This document shows, piece by piece, positions 22,064 to 50,134 of a stretch of DNA of 64,000 nt (position 1 is the stretch's first letter; each line of letters opens with the position of its first letter). A program made the position numbers and the translations under genes. This stretch comes from an uncultured Mycoplasmatota bacterium (lineage in GTDB: Bacteria > Bacillota_I > Bacilli_A > RF39 > UBA660). The stretch spans positions 1,795 to 65,794 of the forward strand of contig CANSRH010000008.1 of NCBI GenBank assembly GCA_947649365.1, given 5' to 3'. The notes beneath the pieces are model-generated. The model did not search any database. It was not told where the DNA came from and saw only the letters and a list, made by a program, of their open reading frames with translations.

Positions 22064-22123
22064 AAGTTGATATTTCTTTTATTTTCCGTTATAATAGCCT
22101 TCGGTAAAAAAAGGGGGTTAATA

Positions 22124-23065
22124 ATGAAAAATAGAGATGTATTTTCTTTTCCCGATTGGTATCCGTTTGGCATAGAAGTAGAAATATCTAATTTTTCTAT
22201 TTATAATATGGAAAAAATATTAGAAAAAGATAAAGATGTTTTTAATATTAAAAGAATAAGTTCTTGTAAAGATTTAAGTGTATCCTCTTATTCTTTTTGG
22301 CAAAATCGTAATTTGTTTTGGCAATATAAACGAGAATATACCAATCCTATTTTAAGTCTAGGAATGGAAATTACGAGTCCTATTTTATATAATCAAACGG
22401 AGCATTTAATTAATATGAGAAAGGCATTGGAACAAGTAAAACGGAATGGAGCAGAAGTAAATGAGAAGTGTTCTATTCATGTGCATATTGGTGCAAAACC
22501 TTTTTCTAGAGATTTTAAAAAGTTGTATTCTTTTTTTCTCTTTTACCTTTTGTTTGAACCTGTTTTTTATAAAATGAGTGCTATGGGAAATTTTGGTCAT
22601 GTTCGAGAAATAGCTTCAATATATGCTAATCCTTTGACTTTTCAAATGAAAAAGGCTAAGTTAAAAGAAAAAGAGGTAAAAGAATATATTTTTAATCCTA
22701 GAATGAAAAAACGAAATTCTTTGCATTTTGAAGGCTTTGATTTAAAAAATGATTCGTATGGTTCTTCATTTGAAGTTCGACCGTTTAATGGAACTTTAGA
22801 TTCTTTTGTTGTAGAAAACTATATTGCTATGGTTTTATCTAGTGTTCATTATTCGGTTGGAGATGCCTTTTTAAAAAGAAAAATGTTGAAACGTTGCAAA
22901 ACAGCGTTGAAAGAGAGAAACGAATGGAGTACGTTTGAAGATTTTGTTTCTTCTTCCGACATTTTGGTGGAAGAATTTATGGAGTTGGTTTTTCCAAGAC
23001 AATTGGATAAAGATTTATTTTATGAACAATATAGTGGTAACTATTTAAAAAGAGTTTTATATTGA
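22124..23065 (+). CDS. putative amidoligase / GCS2-like carboxylate-amine ligase family protein (tentative)
   Basis: ATG at 22124 after GGGGG RBS; the TTG at 22067 is less likely. GIEVEISN and CSIHVHIG segments are reminiscent of Amidoligase_2/glutamine-synthetase-like folds. The assignment is pattern-based only. Confidence 0.3.
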   Translation: MKNRDVFSFPDWYPFGIEVEISNFSIYNMEKILEKDKDVFNIKRISSCKDLSVSSYSFWQNRNLFWQYKREYTNPILSLGMEITSPILYNQTEHLINMRKALEQVKRNGAEVNEKCSIHVHIGAKPFSRDFKKLYSFFLFYLLFEPVFYKMSAMGNFGHVREIASIYANPLTFQMKKAKLKEKEVKEYIFNPRMKKRNSLHFEGFDLKNDSYGSSFEVRPFNGTLDSFVVENYIAMVLSSVHYSVGDAFLKRKMLKRCKTALKERNEWSTFEDFVSSSDILVEEFMELVFPRQLDKDLFYEQYSGNYLKRVLY

Positions 23066-24973: not shown

Positions 24974-25597
24974 TTGGAAAAAATAAATTATAATGAGCGA
25001 ATGGAAAAGGAAATCACACGTTTTACTGAGAAGAAAACACTACTTTTGCATAGTTGTTGTGCTCCTTGTTCTTCTAGTGTGATTGCACGTTTAAAGGATT
25101 TTTTTGCAATTACCATTTTGTATTATAATCCAAATATTGAACCGGAGGCAGAATATTTGAAACGAAAAGAGGAACAAATACGTTTTTTAAAAGAGTATGC
25201 TCCTTCTGTAAATATTTTGGACGTTCCCTATGAAAATGAGTGTTTTCAAGAGGTTTCTAAATATTTAGAAAAGGAAAAAGAAGGGGGCGCAAGATGTCAT
25301 AAATGTTACTATTTGCGTCTAGAAAGAACCATGAAAGAAGCGGTGAATCATCATTTTGATTATTTTGGAACCACTTTGACGGTAAGTCCTTATAAAAATG
25401 CTTTTGTGATAAATACCATTGGGTTACAATTGGAAGAAATGTATAATCGAGGAAAAGTAGAGAAAGATAAAATTAAGTTTTTGGTTTCTGATTTTAAGAA
25501 AAAGGATGGCTATAAAAAAAGTATCGAGTTATCAAAAGAATACCATTTGTATCGTCAGGAGTATTGCGGTTGTTTGTATGGAAAAGAAAACGAGTAG
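24974..25597 (+). CDS. queH: epoxyqueuosine reductase QueH (DUF208)
   Basis: LLLHSCCAPCSS motif and a C-terminal Cys cluster (YCGCLYG). TTG start at 24974; an alternative ATG lies at 25001. Confidence 0.75.
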   Translation: MEKINYNERMEKEITRFTEKKTLLLHSCCAPCSSSVIARLKDFFAITILYYNPNIEPEAEYLKRKEEQIRFLKEYAPSVNILDVPYENECFQEVSKYLEKEKEGGARCHKCYYLRLERTMKEAVNHHFDYFGTTLTVSPYKNAFVINTIGLQLEEMYNRGKVEKDKIKFLVSDFKKKDGYKKSIELSKEYHLYRQEYCGCLYGKENE

Positions 25598-25911
25598 TTT
25601 TTCTTTTTTTCTATTCTTTCGACATGAATTGACAAAATGGTACATTGTATTCATGAAATGACAGTCTTTTTTCTTTTTATTATACTTTATATTAGTAGAG
25701 AGAATAGATAGGACGTTTCCATCGTTTCATGATTTTTATAGAAACAACGTTGTTCTTTTTACAGCATTGTTTTGTGAGATAATAAAGTAGTAACTGTTTC
25801 AAAGTAGTTGGTTTCTTTGGAATACAGTTTTTTATTTTGGATGTTCCATTCATTATTTAAAAAAAAGCAGTACATTTTTTGTATTGCTTTTCTTTTTGGG
25901 GAGGAATTTTT

Positions 25912-26271
25912 ATGAGTCAAATTTATGAGAAATATGTGGCTTTAAAAGAGAAGAATAAAGAATTAATGTATTTGTTTCGAAGTGGAAATTTCTATATCTT
26001 TTTAGGGGAGGATGCAGAAAAAATTAACGAATACGTGGTTTTAAAAAAGACTCAGTTTTGTAAAGAAGCTTTGAAGTGTGGATTTCCAGTTTCAAGTTTG
26101 GATGCTTATCTTCGTATTTTTCAAAATCATGGATTGGATGTGAAAGTAGTAGAAAAAGAACTTGTTTCTTGTGAAAAGTTAATTGAATCTTTACGCAAAT
26201 TGGATTTGGATCATACGACTCCTATTCGAGCATTAAATATTTTGAAGGAATTAAAGGAATCATTAAAATAA
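25912..26271 (+). CDS. standalone MutS domain I-like mini protein (about 119 aa)
   Basis: ATG at 25912 after GGGGAGG. YEKYVALKEKNKELMYLFRSGNFYIFLGEDAEKI parallels the MutS N-terminal mismatch-binding domain (QQY..IK..HPD.LLFFR.GDFYELFYEDA). The C-terminal TPIRALNILKEL resembles the MutS C-terminal tail. Confidence 0.45.
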   Translation: MSQIYEKYVALKEKNKELMYLFRSGNFYIFLGEDAEKINEYVVLKKTQFCKEALKCGFPVSSLDAYLRIFQNHGLDVKVVEKELVSCEKLIESLRKLDLDHTTPIRALNILKELKESLK

Positions 26272-26299: not shown

Positions 26300-26665
26300 A
26301 TGAATTCGGTGATTACGTTGACTTTGCAGGATAGTTATTTTTTATTTACAATGCTAACAATTCTTTTGACACGATTCTTTGTTTATATGTTTCCTAAACC
26401 AAGCCCTACCATAAAAAATTTTAGAACTCACCATTGGATGTTTGGGTTGGTGTTTACTATTTTTCTTTTTTTAATCAAAACGTTTTATACAAATATTTAT
26501 TTATTGGCGATTGGTATGGGGATATTTTTTGATGAAATAGGCTTCATTTTACTGAAAGGGAAAACGCATGAAGATAATTATAGTCCGTCATCTTTTATCA
26601 TATTGTTTTGCTTTCTTGTTTTTTTGTTTCTCTTTAGAGAAACGATTGTTCATTTTTATTTATAA
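26300..26665 (+). CDS. hypothetical integral membrane protein (121 aa, 3-4 TM)
   Basis: Hydrophobic ORF directly downstream of the mini-MutS gene. Confidence 0.45.
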   Translation: MNSVITLTLQDSYFLFTMLTILLTRFFVYMFPKPSPTIKNFRTHHWMFGLVFTIFLFLIKTFYTNIYLLAIGMGIFFDEIGFILLKGKTHEDNYSPSSFIILFCFLVFLFLFRETIVHFYL

Positions 26666-29070: not shown

Positions 29071-29127
29071 ATTGAAATAAAATTAAATGTAAGATAAAAT
29101 TGTAATAGAAAATAGAGGAGAGATGAA

Positions 29128-30430
29128 ATGAAAAAAGAAAAGAAAATCCTCCCAACCAGTCGAATTCGTCTGGGGGGGGGGTATATTAAGTAAACCAGAA
29201 GGATTAGAAAGGTTTAGTAAAAACAAAAGAAACAAGAAAGTAGTACTTGGTTCTATATTAGGGATATTCATAGTACTAGGAAGTATAACACTATACAAAA
29301 CATTTGCTTTATATAAAGAAGAAAAGACATTTAATGTAATTAGAGGTCAAGTCCCAGAATTTCAAAGGATGGATATAGAACTACTATCATTTACATTGGA
29401 TGGAAAGAATATAGAAACAGCGCCAAGTAAGGGAGCGTATGATGTAAGTATAACATGTAACAATGGAGCAGAAGGATATTGGGATTATGAAGAATGGGGA
29501 GTAGAAATAAAAAACATAACCAAGCAAACAAAATGTAATATAACATTTACTACAGGGAAATATTTTAGTGAGTATATAAAAGATATAAGTAAGAGTAGTA
29601 GTAATGTAGTAAAGGTAAGTCATGAAAAAACAGAACAGACCCCAGCATTAGAAGATTATCGATATGTTGGATCTAACCCAGATAATTATGTCTATTTTGG
29701 ATGTAGTGAGAATTGTACGGATGATAATTTATATCGAGTGATTGGAGTCATCCCAACCCAAAGTACTATGGATGGAGAATATGAAAATCGAGTAAAACTG
29801 GTTAAAGATAAGTATTATACAGAAAATGAAACTGGATATCTAGAGAATGAAAATAGATATGAATACAATAGAGATACAGGGAGCAATAGTTGGTCAGAAA
29901 GTCCAATAAATAAAAAAGTATTAAATGACATATTTTGGAATTCTTTAGGAGAATATCAAGGGTATATAGAGCAAGCCAAATGGTATTTGGGAGCTCCACT
30001 TGGTGATGATGCTTCGATTTATACTTCAGACAACTTATACAATTTAGAAAGAAGTACAATTAGAGGAAAAAGTGGTGGAGCAATATCCTATATAAATAAT
30101 ATAGGATTAATACATCCAAGTGATTTTGGTTTTACAGTAGAAAGTAAGTATAGAGATAAGAGTATTAATGCCAATCTAGAAATATTTACAAAATCTTGGA
30201 TGACTCGAGGTAAAATGACTATATCACCGGAATCTCATCTAGCTGCTACAGGCCAATATGGTACAATTCATTGGATAATATCAGGATCAAAAAGTGAATT
30301 TTTAAATTGCCATCATACAAAAGGAGGATCTGGTTCTTATATATATCCTACTTTTTATCTAAGTGCTGATGTACAATATAAAAATGGGGATGGAACAAGA
30401 GAAAATCCTTATTGCATAAAAAAAGATTAG
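29128..30430 (+). CDS. phase-variable (currently OFF) membrane-anchored protein; G10 tract at 29172-29181 separates the RBS/ATG/anchor from the 353-aa body (ORF 29369..30430)
   Basis: GAGGAG RBS and ATG at 29128 (frame 1) read MKKEKKILPTSRIRLGGGYIK* through G10. Frame 2 is open from 29132 through 30430 and contains the TM helix VVLGSILGIFIVLGSITLY. One G fewer fuses the two. The internal ATG at 29369 has no usable RBS. Confidence 0.6.
29172..29181. repeat. poly(G)10 homopolymeric tract (slipped-strand mispairing site)
   Basis: The only homopolymeric G/C run of 8 or more in a roughly 30% GC window. Located in the 5' coding region. Confidence 0.8.
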
Positions 30431-47674: not shown

Positions 47675-50134
47675 ATGGAACCTAGACAATACAATGAAAA
47701 AGTTTATAATAAAGACGTTGCTTTATTACGCAATAAAATAAGAGCGTTAGAGGAAGACATTTTGAATGGAAAAATGCAGGTGGAAACACTTGCGGATTTT
47801 AATCGTGTATTGGAAGAAGTAATTGCTATTGAAAGTGAATTTTCATTGATTTATGAAGAGTCGCTTCATCAAAATTATACTTTAGATTTGAATACTTATT
47901 TTTCTTATGAAAGTAGATTTTTACATGAGTTCGTTTATTTTTTAAAAATTTTTGATAATTATCATAAAGCAGCAGGAGAATTATTGATCGATGATGCTAC
48001 TATAAAACAAGAATGGAAAGATATTATTACTATAATTCGCTTTAATAAAACAGAAATGCTTTTAGAAAAGTGGGGAGTTTTTTTGTATGATAAAGATTGT
48101 GAAAATGAAAAGGAATATCTTGCTTCTTTTATGAAAGATTTGCAGGTAGGTCTAGATGTTAGTGAAGATAATTTCCAGAATAAGTGGCAAGACATGGTTT
48201 TGATTGAAGCTTTTAAAAAGTTGGATGATGAAATATCAAAAATTGATAAAGTTCGAAATGGCGATGAGTATGATCGTTTAGTTCCTTTGTATAATGAATT
48301 AAATAAAGAAATAGATTCTAAACTATTGCCAAGATTGAAAATAATTATCTCCAATACTAATTTTGGGAATAAAGAAAGATATAAAGGGAATATTGGAGCT
48401 ATTTGTCAACAAATTTCGCAAAAAAATTGTTCTGCTACTATGGAGAGTGTTAATCGAATTTTGGATGCAGAGGAGAATCCAGCTTATTATCAAAGGATGC
48501 GATCTAAAGAATTTCAAGAACAAAGAAAAAAAGATGTTATATTGGATAGAAATTTTATGAAACAATTAACGCTTTCTAGTCAAATTAAATATATTCGTTT
48601 GGTTTTACAAAATATCATATCTATTGAATTAGAAGACGAAGAAGAGGTAGCTCATGTTTTTATTGATGGAAAAGAGTATTCCTATCCAAAACGTTATCAA
48701 TATAGAGTGGAGAATTATTTGGTAGATTTAAAACAATTAGAAAGAAGACAAGAAAAAGCTACGATTTTAGAAGAAAGTAATTCTGTTTCAGAAGAAAAAG
48801 CTACGATTTTAGAAAAAAGTAATTCAATTTTAGAAGAAAAAGATCAAATTATTGCTGAACGATATGCTGAACTTCAATTAGAAATGGATAAAATTATTGC
48901 TTCTATGCGATTTTTGGAAGAGAAAGGAAATTCTTATTTAAATAAAGACAAGGTCGTTTCAGGGATTGTCAATGGAGAAAAAATCTCTGTTTTAAAAAAG
49001 GATTATGAAGAATATCAAACTTTGTTTCAAAAAGCTAAATCTATAAAGGCTACTCTTATTGAGATTGAAACAAAAAATCATTATTATGAAGATGAAAAAG
49101 ATTTAGGAAGTGAAAAGAAACAAATAGAATTTTGGCATAGAAGAAAATGTGAAATTCAAAAAGGAAAAAAGAGTGCTTTTCTTGCAAATGCGATTCTCTT
49201 AATAAATCGTTTAAATATTCCAAAGAAATTTCAAGCTTTGTATACAACTATTTTGTATGATACAGAATCATTTATAAGCTCTAAAAAATATACCAATTCT
49301 ACCAAACGAAAAGGATTGAATAATCTTTGTTCGTTATTAAATCGTTTACAAGATAAAAATTATCGAAATGAAAAATTTGTTGAGTTTGTAGAAAATTCCA
49401 AATTAAAAATGTTGTCTAGTTTGGCTATGATGCCTGTAAAAGAGACAGAAACGTTTGTTATTCGTAAAGTGAAAAAGAGTTCTTCCAAACCATGGAAAAA
49501 AGTTGTTGTTGTTTCTGCTTTAAGCTCTTTGATAGGATTAGGCGCGTTATTTGCGCTATCTAATAAAAAAATGGATGTCAAGAATTTTTTCGTTGCTAAT
49601 CAACATTCCACTCTTCCTTCTTTAGAGACAAGAATTGAAGAGAATGTCGTAGCTTCTAAGATGGAAATGTTAGCGGATAAGATTATTCAATACCAAAAAG
49701 AACATCCAGATTGGGAAATGACTTTTGAAAAAGAGCAAAATACACCTTCTATTATGTCTTCTGTTAGAACGACGGTAGAACAGCAAGAGACATTGGATAA
49801 AGTAGAGGGCGCAGAAAAGGTTAATATGTATGATTTGGTTTATCTTAAACCTGATAGTAGAGTTTTTGCAACACGTGGAGCTATGGAAAGTGAAGCATGT
49901 AGTGCTGATATTACTGTTCCTTATCAAGTGACTGGAGTGCAGTATCAGAATGGTGCTTGGATTAGTGCTGAGAGTAAAGAGTATGATGCCTCTTCCATGT
50001 GTCGGGCATGTAATGCACAAGAAAACTATTCTCAAGTTAGAGTTAGACTTGTTAATCCTACAACGGGAGCTTATATCGGTTTTGTTGGTTTGGATTCTAT
50101 TGTTGCTCAAAATGAATTAGGGAAAGGAAGGTAA
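47675..50134 (+). CDS. large hypothetical bitopic coiled-coil protein (819 aa) with internal tandem repeat
   Basis: A roughly 600-aa cytoplasmic coiled-coil region, TM (VVVVSALSSLIGLGALFAL), and a roughly 190-aa C-terminal extracytoplasmic domain with Cys residues. A 14-aa unit EEKATILE(E/K)SNS is tandemly repeated at nt 48757-48840. Confidence 0.5.
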   Translation: MEPRQYNEKVYNKDVALLRNKIRALEEDILNGKMQVETLADFNRVLEEVIAIESEFSLIYEESLHQNYTLDLNTYFSYESRFLHEFVYFLKIFDNYHKAAGELLIDDATIKQEWKDIITIIRFNKTEMLLEKWGVFLYDKDCENEKEYLASFMKDLQVGLDVSEDNFQNKWQDMVLIEAFKKLDDEISKIDKVRNGDEYDRLVPLYNELNKEIDSKLLPRLKIIISNTNFGNKERYKGNIGAICQQISQKNCSATMESVNRILDAEENPAYYQRMRSKEFQEQRKKDVILDRNFMKQLTLSSQIKYIRLVLQNIISIELEDEEEVAHVFIDGKEYSYPKRYQYRVENYLVDLKQLERRQEKATILEESNSVSEEKATILEKSNSILEEKDQIIAERYAELQLEMDKIIASMRFLEEKGNSYLNKDKVVSGIVNGEKISVLKKDYEEYQTLFQKAKSIKATLIEIETKNHYYEDEKDLGSEKKQIEFWHRRKCEIQKGKKSAFLANAILLINRLNIPKKFQALYTTILYDTESFISSKKYTNSTKRKGLNNLCSLLNRLQDKNYRNEKFVEFVENSKLKMLSSLAMMPVKETETFVIRKVKKSSSKPWKKVVVVSALSSLIGLGALFALSNKKMDVKNFFVANQHSTLPSLETRIEENVVASKMEMLADKIIQYQKEHPDWEMTFEKEQNTPSIMSSVRTTVEQQETLDKVEGAEKVNMYDLVYLKPDSRVFATRGAMESEACSADITVPYQVTGVQYQNGAWISAESKEYDASSMCRACNAQENYSQVRVRLVNPTTGAYIGFVGLDSIVAQNELGKGR

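Follow-up and report, generated by a model that had tools for sequence, protein, structure and literature searches.

A small MutS-like gene in an uncultured Mycoplasmatota genome belongs to the Msl family of DGR accessory genes and has lost its own retroelement

Introduction

Wu et al. (2018) defined MSL (MutS-like) proteins as products of 112-283 aa that were present in 16 of 372 surveyed DGRs, as architecture D (PMC5758913). All 16 of these DGRs also carried avd, and the function of MSL was left open; DGRs acting on remote targets were described in the same survey (PMC5758913). A 2021 review repeats the 2018 account of MSL. Macadangdang et al. (2024) reported Msl in three Bacteroides DGRs, Bfr, Bth and Bun, and deletion of the host mutS raised DGR retrohoming 5-10 fold (10.1101/2024.11.15.621889).

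Mismatch repair must be disabled for DGRs to work in E. coli, and engineered dominant-negative repair proteins, for example MutL E32K, boost the efficiency of DGRs and of recombineering. We found no functional study of any Msl in the searchable literature.

Here we describe an msl gene (for MutS-like DGR accessory protein) from an uncultured Mycoplasmatota bacterium. The window is the whole stretch of DNA that was analysed, 64 kb in length with a G+C content of 30.5%. A preliminary description of the gene had read its product as a standalone mini-MutS with a domain I-like N-terminus and a MutS-like C-terminal tail.

Results

The msl gene and its surroundings

The gene and its ribosome binding site are as follows.

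25912..26271, + strand: msl, 119 aa plus stop (ORF call, Pfam MutS_I)
25898..25904, + strand: Shine-Dalgarno sequence GGGGAGG, 7 nt ahead of the msl ATG (read from the sequence)

Both the coordinates and the length of the ORF given previously were correct, and the GGGGAGG that had been assigned to msl as its own RBS is present; GGAGG is kept at the same site before msl across homologous loci. An alternative TTG start at 25879 would lengthen the ORF. This start appears unlikely because homologues open with MSQIY or MSKIY, and because GGGGAGG sits 7 nt 5' of the ATG.

Upstream of msl the gene order is mraY, ftsW, an amidoligase-like gene, murG, divIB and queH (24974-25597), and the spacer between queH and msl is 314 nt. 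Downstream lie a gene for a 121-aa membrane protein (26300-26665), a 73-aa ORF, rpsB, tsf and, later, frr. The 26300-26665 product is hydrophobic, in agreement with the small membrane protein that had been predicted to follow msl. Its family comprises more than 170 homologous clusters, with 65-74% identity and from metagenome-assembled genomes of Bacilli and Erysipelotrichales; the protein has no Pfam domain and no name, and a homologue of it adjoins msl in none of the related loci.

Two other genes of the window are recorded here. The amidoligase-like gene (22067-23065, 332 aa) belongs to the Amidoligase_2 family and is placed between ftsW and murG in the cell-division cluster, a placement shared by locus L082. 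An 819-aa ORF at 47675-50134 gave no Pfam match at E<=0.001. A full-length mutS was sought in the 64 kb and none was found, the long ORFs being gyrB, gyrA, genes for penicillin-binding proteins, ileS and others. When 24.5-29.5 kb was scanned with Rfam, there was a single match, to SmY, which at 20 bits against a cut-off of 39 was below threshold and was dismissed as chance.

The N-terminal part of Msl is homologous to MutS domain I

The domain assigned to the N-terminal part is the following.

25918..26160, + strand: MutS domain I-like fold, residues 3-83 (aligned with MutS of E. coli and Taq; Foldseek rmsd 1.6-2.1 A)

A search against the Pfam MutS_I profile had been suggested as a check on the proposed domain I. 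The match was significant, with 44.9 bits against a cut-off of 20.6 (E=1.6e-11, residues 6-83), and the alternative that the likeness to MutS is a compositional artefact was rejected. The NCBIfam model TIGR01070 (mutS1) matched in its domain I part with E=9.6e-11, at 40.7 bits against the cut-off of 641.7. A profile built from 96 family members found MutS in the PDB with a best E value of 4.5e-7, and together phmmer and this profile retrieved the E. coli, Thermus and Neisseria MutS proteins and human MSH3, in each case at domain I. An AlphaFold2 model made from the family alignment had a mean pLDDT of 91, and Foldseek placed it on domain I of MutS and MSH3 over ~83 residues. Judged from these sequence matches and from the model superposition, the N-terminal resemblance is true homology, as had been proposed.

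Pfam detected MutS_I alone in the window protein, with no connector, core, clamp or ABC ATPase domain V and no match to the Smr domain. The earlier remark that the ATPase and clamp domains are missing thus holds, and can be extended to the connector. The Phe wedge, which is the Phe of the MutS Phe-X-Glu motif and F27 in Msl, is found in 96/96 aligned family members. The Glu of that motif corresponds to position 29, which is Ile in the window copy and I or L in 96/96 members. Every invariant residue of the family is retained in the window copy. In E. coli MutS, Glu38 mutants bind mismatches and are defective in discrimination and in licensing repair; structures of such mutants are listed in the PDB.

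The C-terminal tail resembles the end of MutS

After domain I the protein has one further element.

26170..26262, + strand: C-terminal helix-loop-helix, residues 87-117, resembling the very C-terminal end of MutS (E. coli 821-852)

The model places helices at residues 87-96 and 104-117 of the tail, and the family profile aligns Msl residues 87-118 with E. coli MutS 821-852. When the 34-aa tail of the window copy was searched by itself, it matched positions 812-839 of the 840 positions of TIGR01070 with E=0.018. The same positions were matched by 30/35 isolated tails of the family (best E=7.9e-4), and no family other than TIGR01070 recurred among the 35 scans. The MutS-like C-terminal motif of the preliminary description is therefore upheld: the likeness is real, but it is weak for any single sequence (E ~0.02).

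In the alignment, T103-P104 of Msl fall on T838-P839 of E. coli MutS, and D100 falls on D835. T103 is T in 88/96 members, P104 is P in 84/96 and D100 is D in 62/96. The dimer-only MutS mutants of PDB entries 3zlj and 6i5f are changed at D835 and P839; by the entry titles, P839E is the 'dimer mutant' and D835R the full-length crystal form.

Msl proteins form a large family of short proteins

Proteins of the family are 110-145 aa long, and at least 100 clusters at 90% identity, of 112-145 aa, match the window protein; relatives of the window Msl are present in 143 GTDB species. An exhaustive profile search yielded 326 clusters at 50% identity (E<=1e-10), and among the 150 clusters listed from this search nearly all had lengths of 77-237 aa. 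We sampled the 80 best genomic loci, all of them from genomes of uncultured Bacilli, 'Tenericutes' or Clostridia, mostly of the gut. In 76 of the 78 loci where the ORF could be called, msl encoded 104-161 aa. One locus, L043, has a 77-aa msl stump and is without a reverse transcriptase. The predicted pI is near neutral, with a family median of 7.2 and a value of 8.4 for the window copy. A search of GenBank phage records for Msl gave one weak, unannotated match.

Two members (P0249, 237 aa, and P0224, 205 aa) are fusions of MutS_I with bAvd. Other architectures were also seen. P0145 and P0171 include a 202-aa fusion of HTH_26 with MutS_I and a 2323-aa protein with DUF285 repeats and an ArdC-N-like stretch, in which Pfam found four MutS_I domains and the family-profile search found six MutS_I stretches. 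PF27441 is assigned as a second Pfam accession to many family members (P0017, P0018, P0045 and others) in precomputed annotation.

The family is an accessory component of DGRs

The neighbouring genes of the 80 loci were clustered to find conserved partners. Three were obtained: a ~346-aa protein in 69/80 loci, a ~120-aa protein in 65/80 and an upstream protein, typically several hundred and up to ~650 aa long, in 39/80. The ~346-aa partner is a reverse transcriptase (Pfam RVT_1), and the ~120-aa partner is bAvd (55 bits in Pfam, cut-off 40). The upstream partner, which is the target gene, gave a weak FGE-sulfatase-like Pfam match that is below cut-off (21.2 vs 23.3 bits). Among msl loci on viral contigs, 66/74 had a reverse transcriptase nearby.

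Template and variable repeat pairs were present in eight loci examined, the 3' end of the upstream target gene recurring 300-400 nt downstream. Five sampled loci had repeats whose differences lay mostly or exclusively at template adenines. In the three loci that were counted, mismatches between the repeats fell at template adenines in 12/13 (L020), 16/16 (L033) and 14/14 (L061) cases. Because a variable repeat, a template repeat with adenine-specific mismatches, Avd and a reverse transcriptase co-occur, the msl loci are DGRs, and we conclude that the msl family is an accessory component of DGRs.

Complete cassettes came in two orders, target(VR)-TR-hairpin-msl-avd-RT and target-184aa-TR-RT-msl. 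In the second subclass a protein of 183-187 aa takes the place of avd (L088 7235-7795, L090 648-1202, L086 201-752 and 24 viral loci). This protein gave no Pfam match, and hhalign assigned it a probability of 0.5% of matching bAvd; it may be analogous to Avd or represent another family of DGR accessory proteins. In L088 (7913-8687) and L001 (3896-4687) a unit that includes the template repeat is present in three tandem copies with a period of ~276-282 nt, flanked by the 186-aa gene and the reverse transcriptase, an unusual multi-template arrangement.

Some cassettes were incomplete. L052 (5303-6372) has a target, a variable repeat, a template repeat, the hairpin and msl, and within 12 kb lacks both a reverse transcriptase and Avd; in L045 and L068 msl and avd are followed by an unrelated 398-aa gene, without a reverse transcriptase.

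The window copy has lost its own retroelement

No reverse transcriptase or Avd was found in the 64-kb window when 69 reverse transcriptases and 65 Avd proteins served as tblastn queries (E<=1e-3), and HMMs run against the six-frame translation of the window (E<=1) detected neither of these nor the 184-aa accessory. The search for a template and variable repeat, made over 20-34 kb, returned low-complexity chance repeats alone, and the C-terminal, VR-bearing region of the targets had no tblastn match anywhere in the 64 kb.

The closest relatives with a reverse transcriptase have Msl proteins 82% (L090), 79% (L092) and 75% (L093) identical to the window copy, each encoded directly after the RVT_1 gene. 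The order in these three contigs is RT-msl-orf73, followed in two of them by rpsB. A 62% identical relative shows queH, a target of 374 aa with a variable repeat, a 186-aa gene, three tandem template-like repeats, RT, msl and rpsB; in a 65% identical relative, whose contig starts inside the cassette, the order is a 183-aa gene, RT, msl and rpsB.

Two segments of the queH-msl spacer were recognised by comparison with these relatives.

25598..25690, + strand: conserved queH-downstream segment, the left border of the DGR site in relatives (83% identical to L082)
25787..25837, + strand: remnant of a cassette terminator hairpin (blastn, 80% identity over 51 nt, E=1.6e-6)

A 45-nt core of the first segment is also found downstream of queH in L088, L089 and L001. 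The homologue of the second segment in L090 is the terminator hairpin that stands after the 184-aa gene and before the template repeat, and the alignment of the two contains compensatory changes. Because the queH-downstream segment, the 51-nt terminator homologue and the hairpin and RBS region of msl all remain, the spacer is a deletion scar. The window msl has lost its own retroelement by deletion of the target, template repeat, 184-aa accessory gene and reverse transcriptase from the queH-rpsB interval; it is a member of the Msl family by descent, though not by its present gene context.

A second orphan was seen in L082, whose Msl is 82% identical to the window copy and which has no DGR parts near msl in 14 kb. 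Its junction is shorter than, and different from, that of the window. The flanks of L082 are 96% identical to those of the RT-bearing loci L090 and L092, and the flanks of the window are 86% identical. Given the differing junctions and these flank identities, the DGR core was probably lost at least twice with msl kept.

Pairwise dN/dS for the window msl was 0.08-0.10, with dS saturated (~1.3), so that these values do not isolate the time since loss of the reverse transcriptase. Low dN/dS of this kind would fit an intact relic and a gene still under selection alike.

Two further observations were made around these loci. Within the species-level group formed by L082, L090 and L092, the orf73-rpsB flanks are 96% identical in DNA and the msl genes 82-85% (dS 0.6-0.8); the cassette region therefore has a much longer history than its surroundings, by way of recombination or allele exchange. 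In the window, a 353-aa ORF after tsf (29123-30430) has an N-terminal domain 38-40% identical to DGR targets over 130-178 aa. Its true 5' end (ATG 29128, with a signal-anchor helix) and the body of the gene are in different frames. The frame breaks at a run of ten G at 29172-29181, and addition of one G or removal of two restores it, making the ORF either a candidate phase-variable surface protein or the product of a homopolymer assembly error.

A conserved hairpin precedes msl

Directly 5' of the RBS the terminator scan identified one more element.

25863..25897, + strand: terminator-like hairpin (AGCAGTACA / TGTATTGCT) with T-run

The stem is formed by 25866-25874 and 25880-25888 and can be extended to 25863-25891; the fold has an energy of -14.4 kcal/mol (z=-3.5). 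The hairpin and T-run that had been noticed upstream of the gene are thus present, and they are conserved among relatives. The 9-bp stem AGCAGTACA/TGTAYTGCT, the T-run and GGAGG precede msl in at least 20 lineages, and 4 of the 9 pairs show compensatory changes across lineages. A strict pattern for the stem was ~30 times commoner within 100 nt upstream of msl than in the remainder of the loci. Where a DGR is present, the hairpin follows the template repeat at a distance of ~170-200 nt; loci whose reverse transcriptase gene directly adjoins msl (L090, L086) lack it.

In the window, the space separating the hairpin from the RBS is too small for a promoter, so msl would be transcribed through the hairpin from promoter-like sites upstream, at 25619-25686. 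In complete cassettes the hairpin may be an intrinsic terminator that ends an RNA made of the template repeat plus spacer, with read-through past it supplying msl-avd-RT.

Discussion

Our preferred reading, to which we give a probability of about 0.8, is that the gene encodes an Msl-family DGR accessory built as a two-piece MutS, and that it stands in the window as the intact relic of a deleted cassette whose present usefulness is uncertain. The gene belongs to a described family and is neither a new class nor a mismatch-repair gene.

A model for Msl in DGRs

The DNA binding, oligomerisation and anti-repair role of Msl, together with the functional state of the window copy, we infer. Domain I by itself, carrying the Phe wedge, should remain able to recognise DNA that is kinked or mismatched, and in a DGR Msl might bind the densely mismatched heteroduplex of cDNA and VR or other distorted DNA. 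Because the tail is MutS-like, its helices may serve for self-association or for docking onto the tail of the host MutS. With no ATPase and no MutL interface, Msl would be unable to signal to MutL or to start repair. The heteroduplex could in this way be shielded from host mismatch repair, or be resolved in favour of the cDNA. Since MutS_I-bAvd fusions exist (P0249, P0224), it is conceivable that Msl acts physically with the Avd-RT complex.

A shield or decoy that binds heteroduplex would be the most economical model of Msl; alternatives are that it directs strand resolution or has no repair role at all. The preliminary description had proposed a decoy or competitor of MutS, which is plausible and fits the published 5-10 fold suppression of retrohoming by MutS. 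If a genome encoded neither MutS nor MutL, there would be little point in an anti-repair role.

Other explanations for the window copy

The window copy might instead still function as an Msl, acting in trans for a DGR that this genome carries outside the 64 kb, which we regard as possible but unlikely. Its ORF is intact, with all invariant residues present and a strong RBS, msl also stands apart from a reverse transcriptase in L052, L045 and L068, and DGRs with remote targets were described in the 2018 survey (PMC5758913). Against this, the 64 kb contain no reverse transcriptase or Avd and the 20-34 kb stretch no template or variable repeat, the local scar indicates that this copy's own cassette was deleted, and the nearest orphan relative, L082, is likewise without a DGR part in 14 kb.

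It is also doubtful, at the level of the family, that Msl is a natural dominant-negative fragment of MutS whose orphans modulate mismatch repair in trans or independently of the retroelement in gut Bacilli with reduced genomes. For this the tail would have to mimic the MutS oligomerisation domain and dock onto the host MutS or, in another form of the proposal, oligomers of Msl would occupy mismatches by way of the Phe wedge; the repair signal would then be blocked, Glu38 and the ATPase being absent.

That the host has co-opted orphan Msl as a retroelement-independent, dominant-negative modulator of mismatch repair or recombination, raising the rate of mutation or of homeologous recombination, seems to us improbable. 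The core of the cassette was probably lost independently in two lineages (the window and L082) with msl kept, dN/dS is low (0.08-0.10), and the tail resembles the MutS oligomerisation domain. However, just two orphan lineages were seen in the clade, decay does happen, as in the 77-aa L043 copy without a reverse transcriptase, and the dN/dS cannot be tied to the time that followed the loss of the reverse transcriptase.

A decayed fragment of a host mutS or mutS2, the latter having been raised in the preliminary description, would account for an ORF that carries just the two ends of MutS, but is ruled out by gene context and by a length conserved across the family: hundreds of homologues are likewise ~120 aa long and are found within DGR cassettes, not at mutS loci, the window gene has no mutS-derived sequence on either side, and MutS2 lacks domain I.

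Implications

The relic of a deleted DGR cassette thus remains the reading that we prefer for the window gene, which annotation should label a DGR relic instead of a mismatch-repair gene. For the family, Msl is one of few recurrent DGR accessory factors. Several points may be new: that the tail is homologous to the MutS oligomerisation domain, that the Glu is universally lost, that the hairpin is conserved, that Msl-Avd fusions exist and that msl has repeatedly outlasted the reverse transcriptase. Testable handles are the kept Phe wedge with its lost Glu, the D835 and P839 equivalents in the tail, the Avd fusions, the hairpin and the survival of orphans. Should Msl be a natural factor that opposes repair, it could serve as a compact tool for boosting DGR- or retron-based mutagenesis.

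Comparison with known systems

The window copy is like the Msl proteins of 2018 and 2024 in being small and homologous to MutS's mismatch-recognition domain, and its 119 aa are within the range of 112-283 aa; its close homologues (75-82%) stand directly beside a DGR reverse transcriptase. It differs in having no reverse transcriptase, avd or template/variable repeat nearby. Furthermore, the MSL of the 2018 survey was always found with avd, whereas the closest RT-bearing relatives of the window copy carry instead a 184-187-aa protein with no Pfam match and no hhalign similarity to bAvd. The 2018, 2021 and 2024 papers mention neither that the tail resembles the MutS oligomerisation domain nor that the Glu38 equivalent is lost.

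With bacterial MutS1 (E. coli, Thermus aquaticus) Msl shares the fold of domain I, the G-x-F-Y motif with the mismatch-stacking Phe, and a C-terminal helix-loop-helix with equivalents of D835 and T838-P839. In contrast to the ~800-860 aa of MutS1, Msl has ~120 aa and is without domains II-V, the ATPase and the clamp; it has no recognisable region for binding MutL or the beta clamp, and Glu38 of Phe-X-Glu is Ile or Leu in all 96 aligned Msl proteins. MutS2 has no domain I and bears a C-terminal Smr nuclease domain, whereas the window Msl has domain I and no Smr.

A functional analogy with MutL E32K is possible, in that a defective repair component would let mismatched intermediates escape repair. 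MutL E32K is a full-length engineered mutant, whereas Msl is a natural two-domain fragment of MutS.
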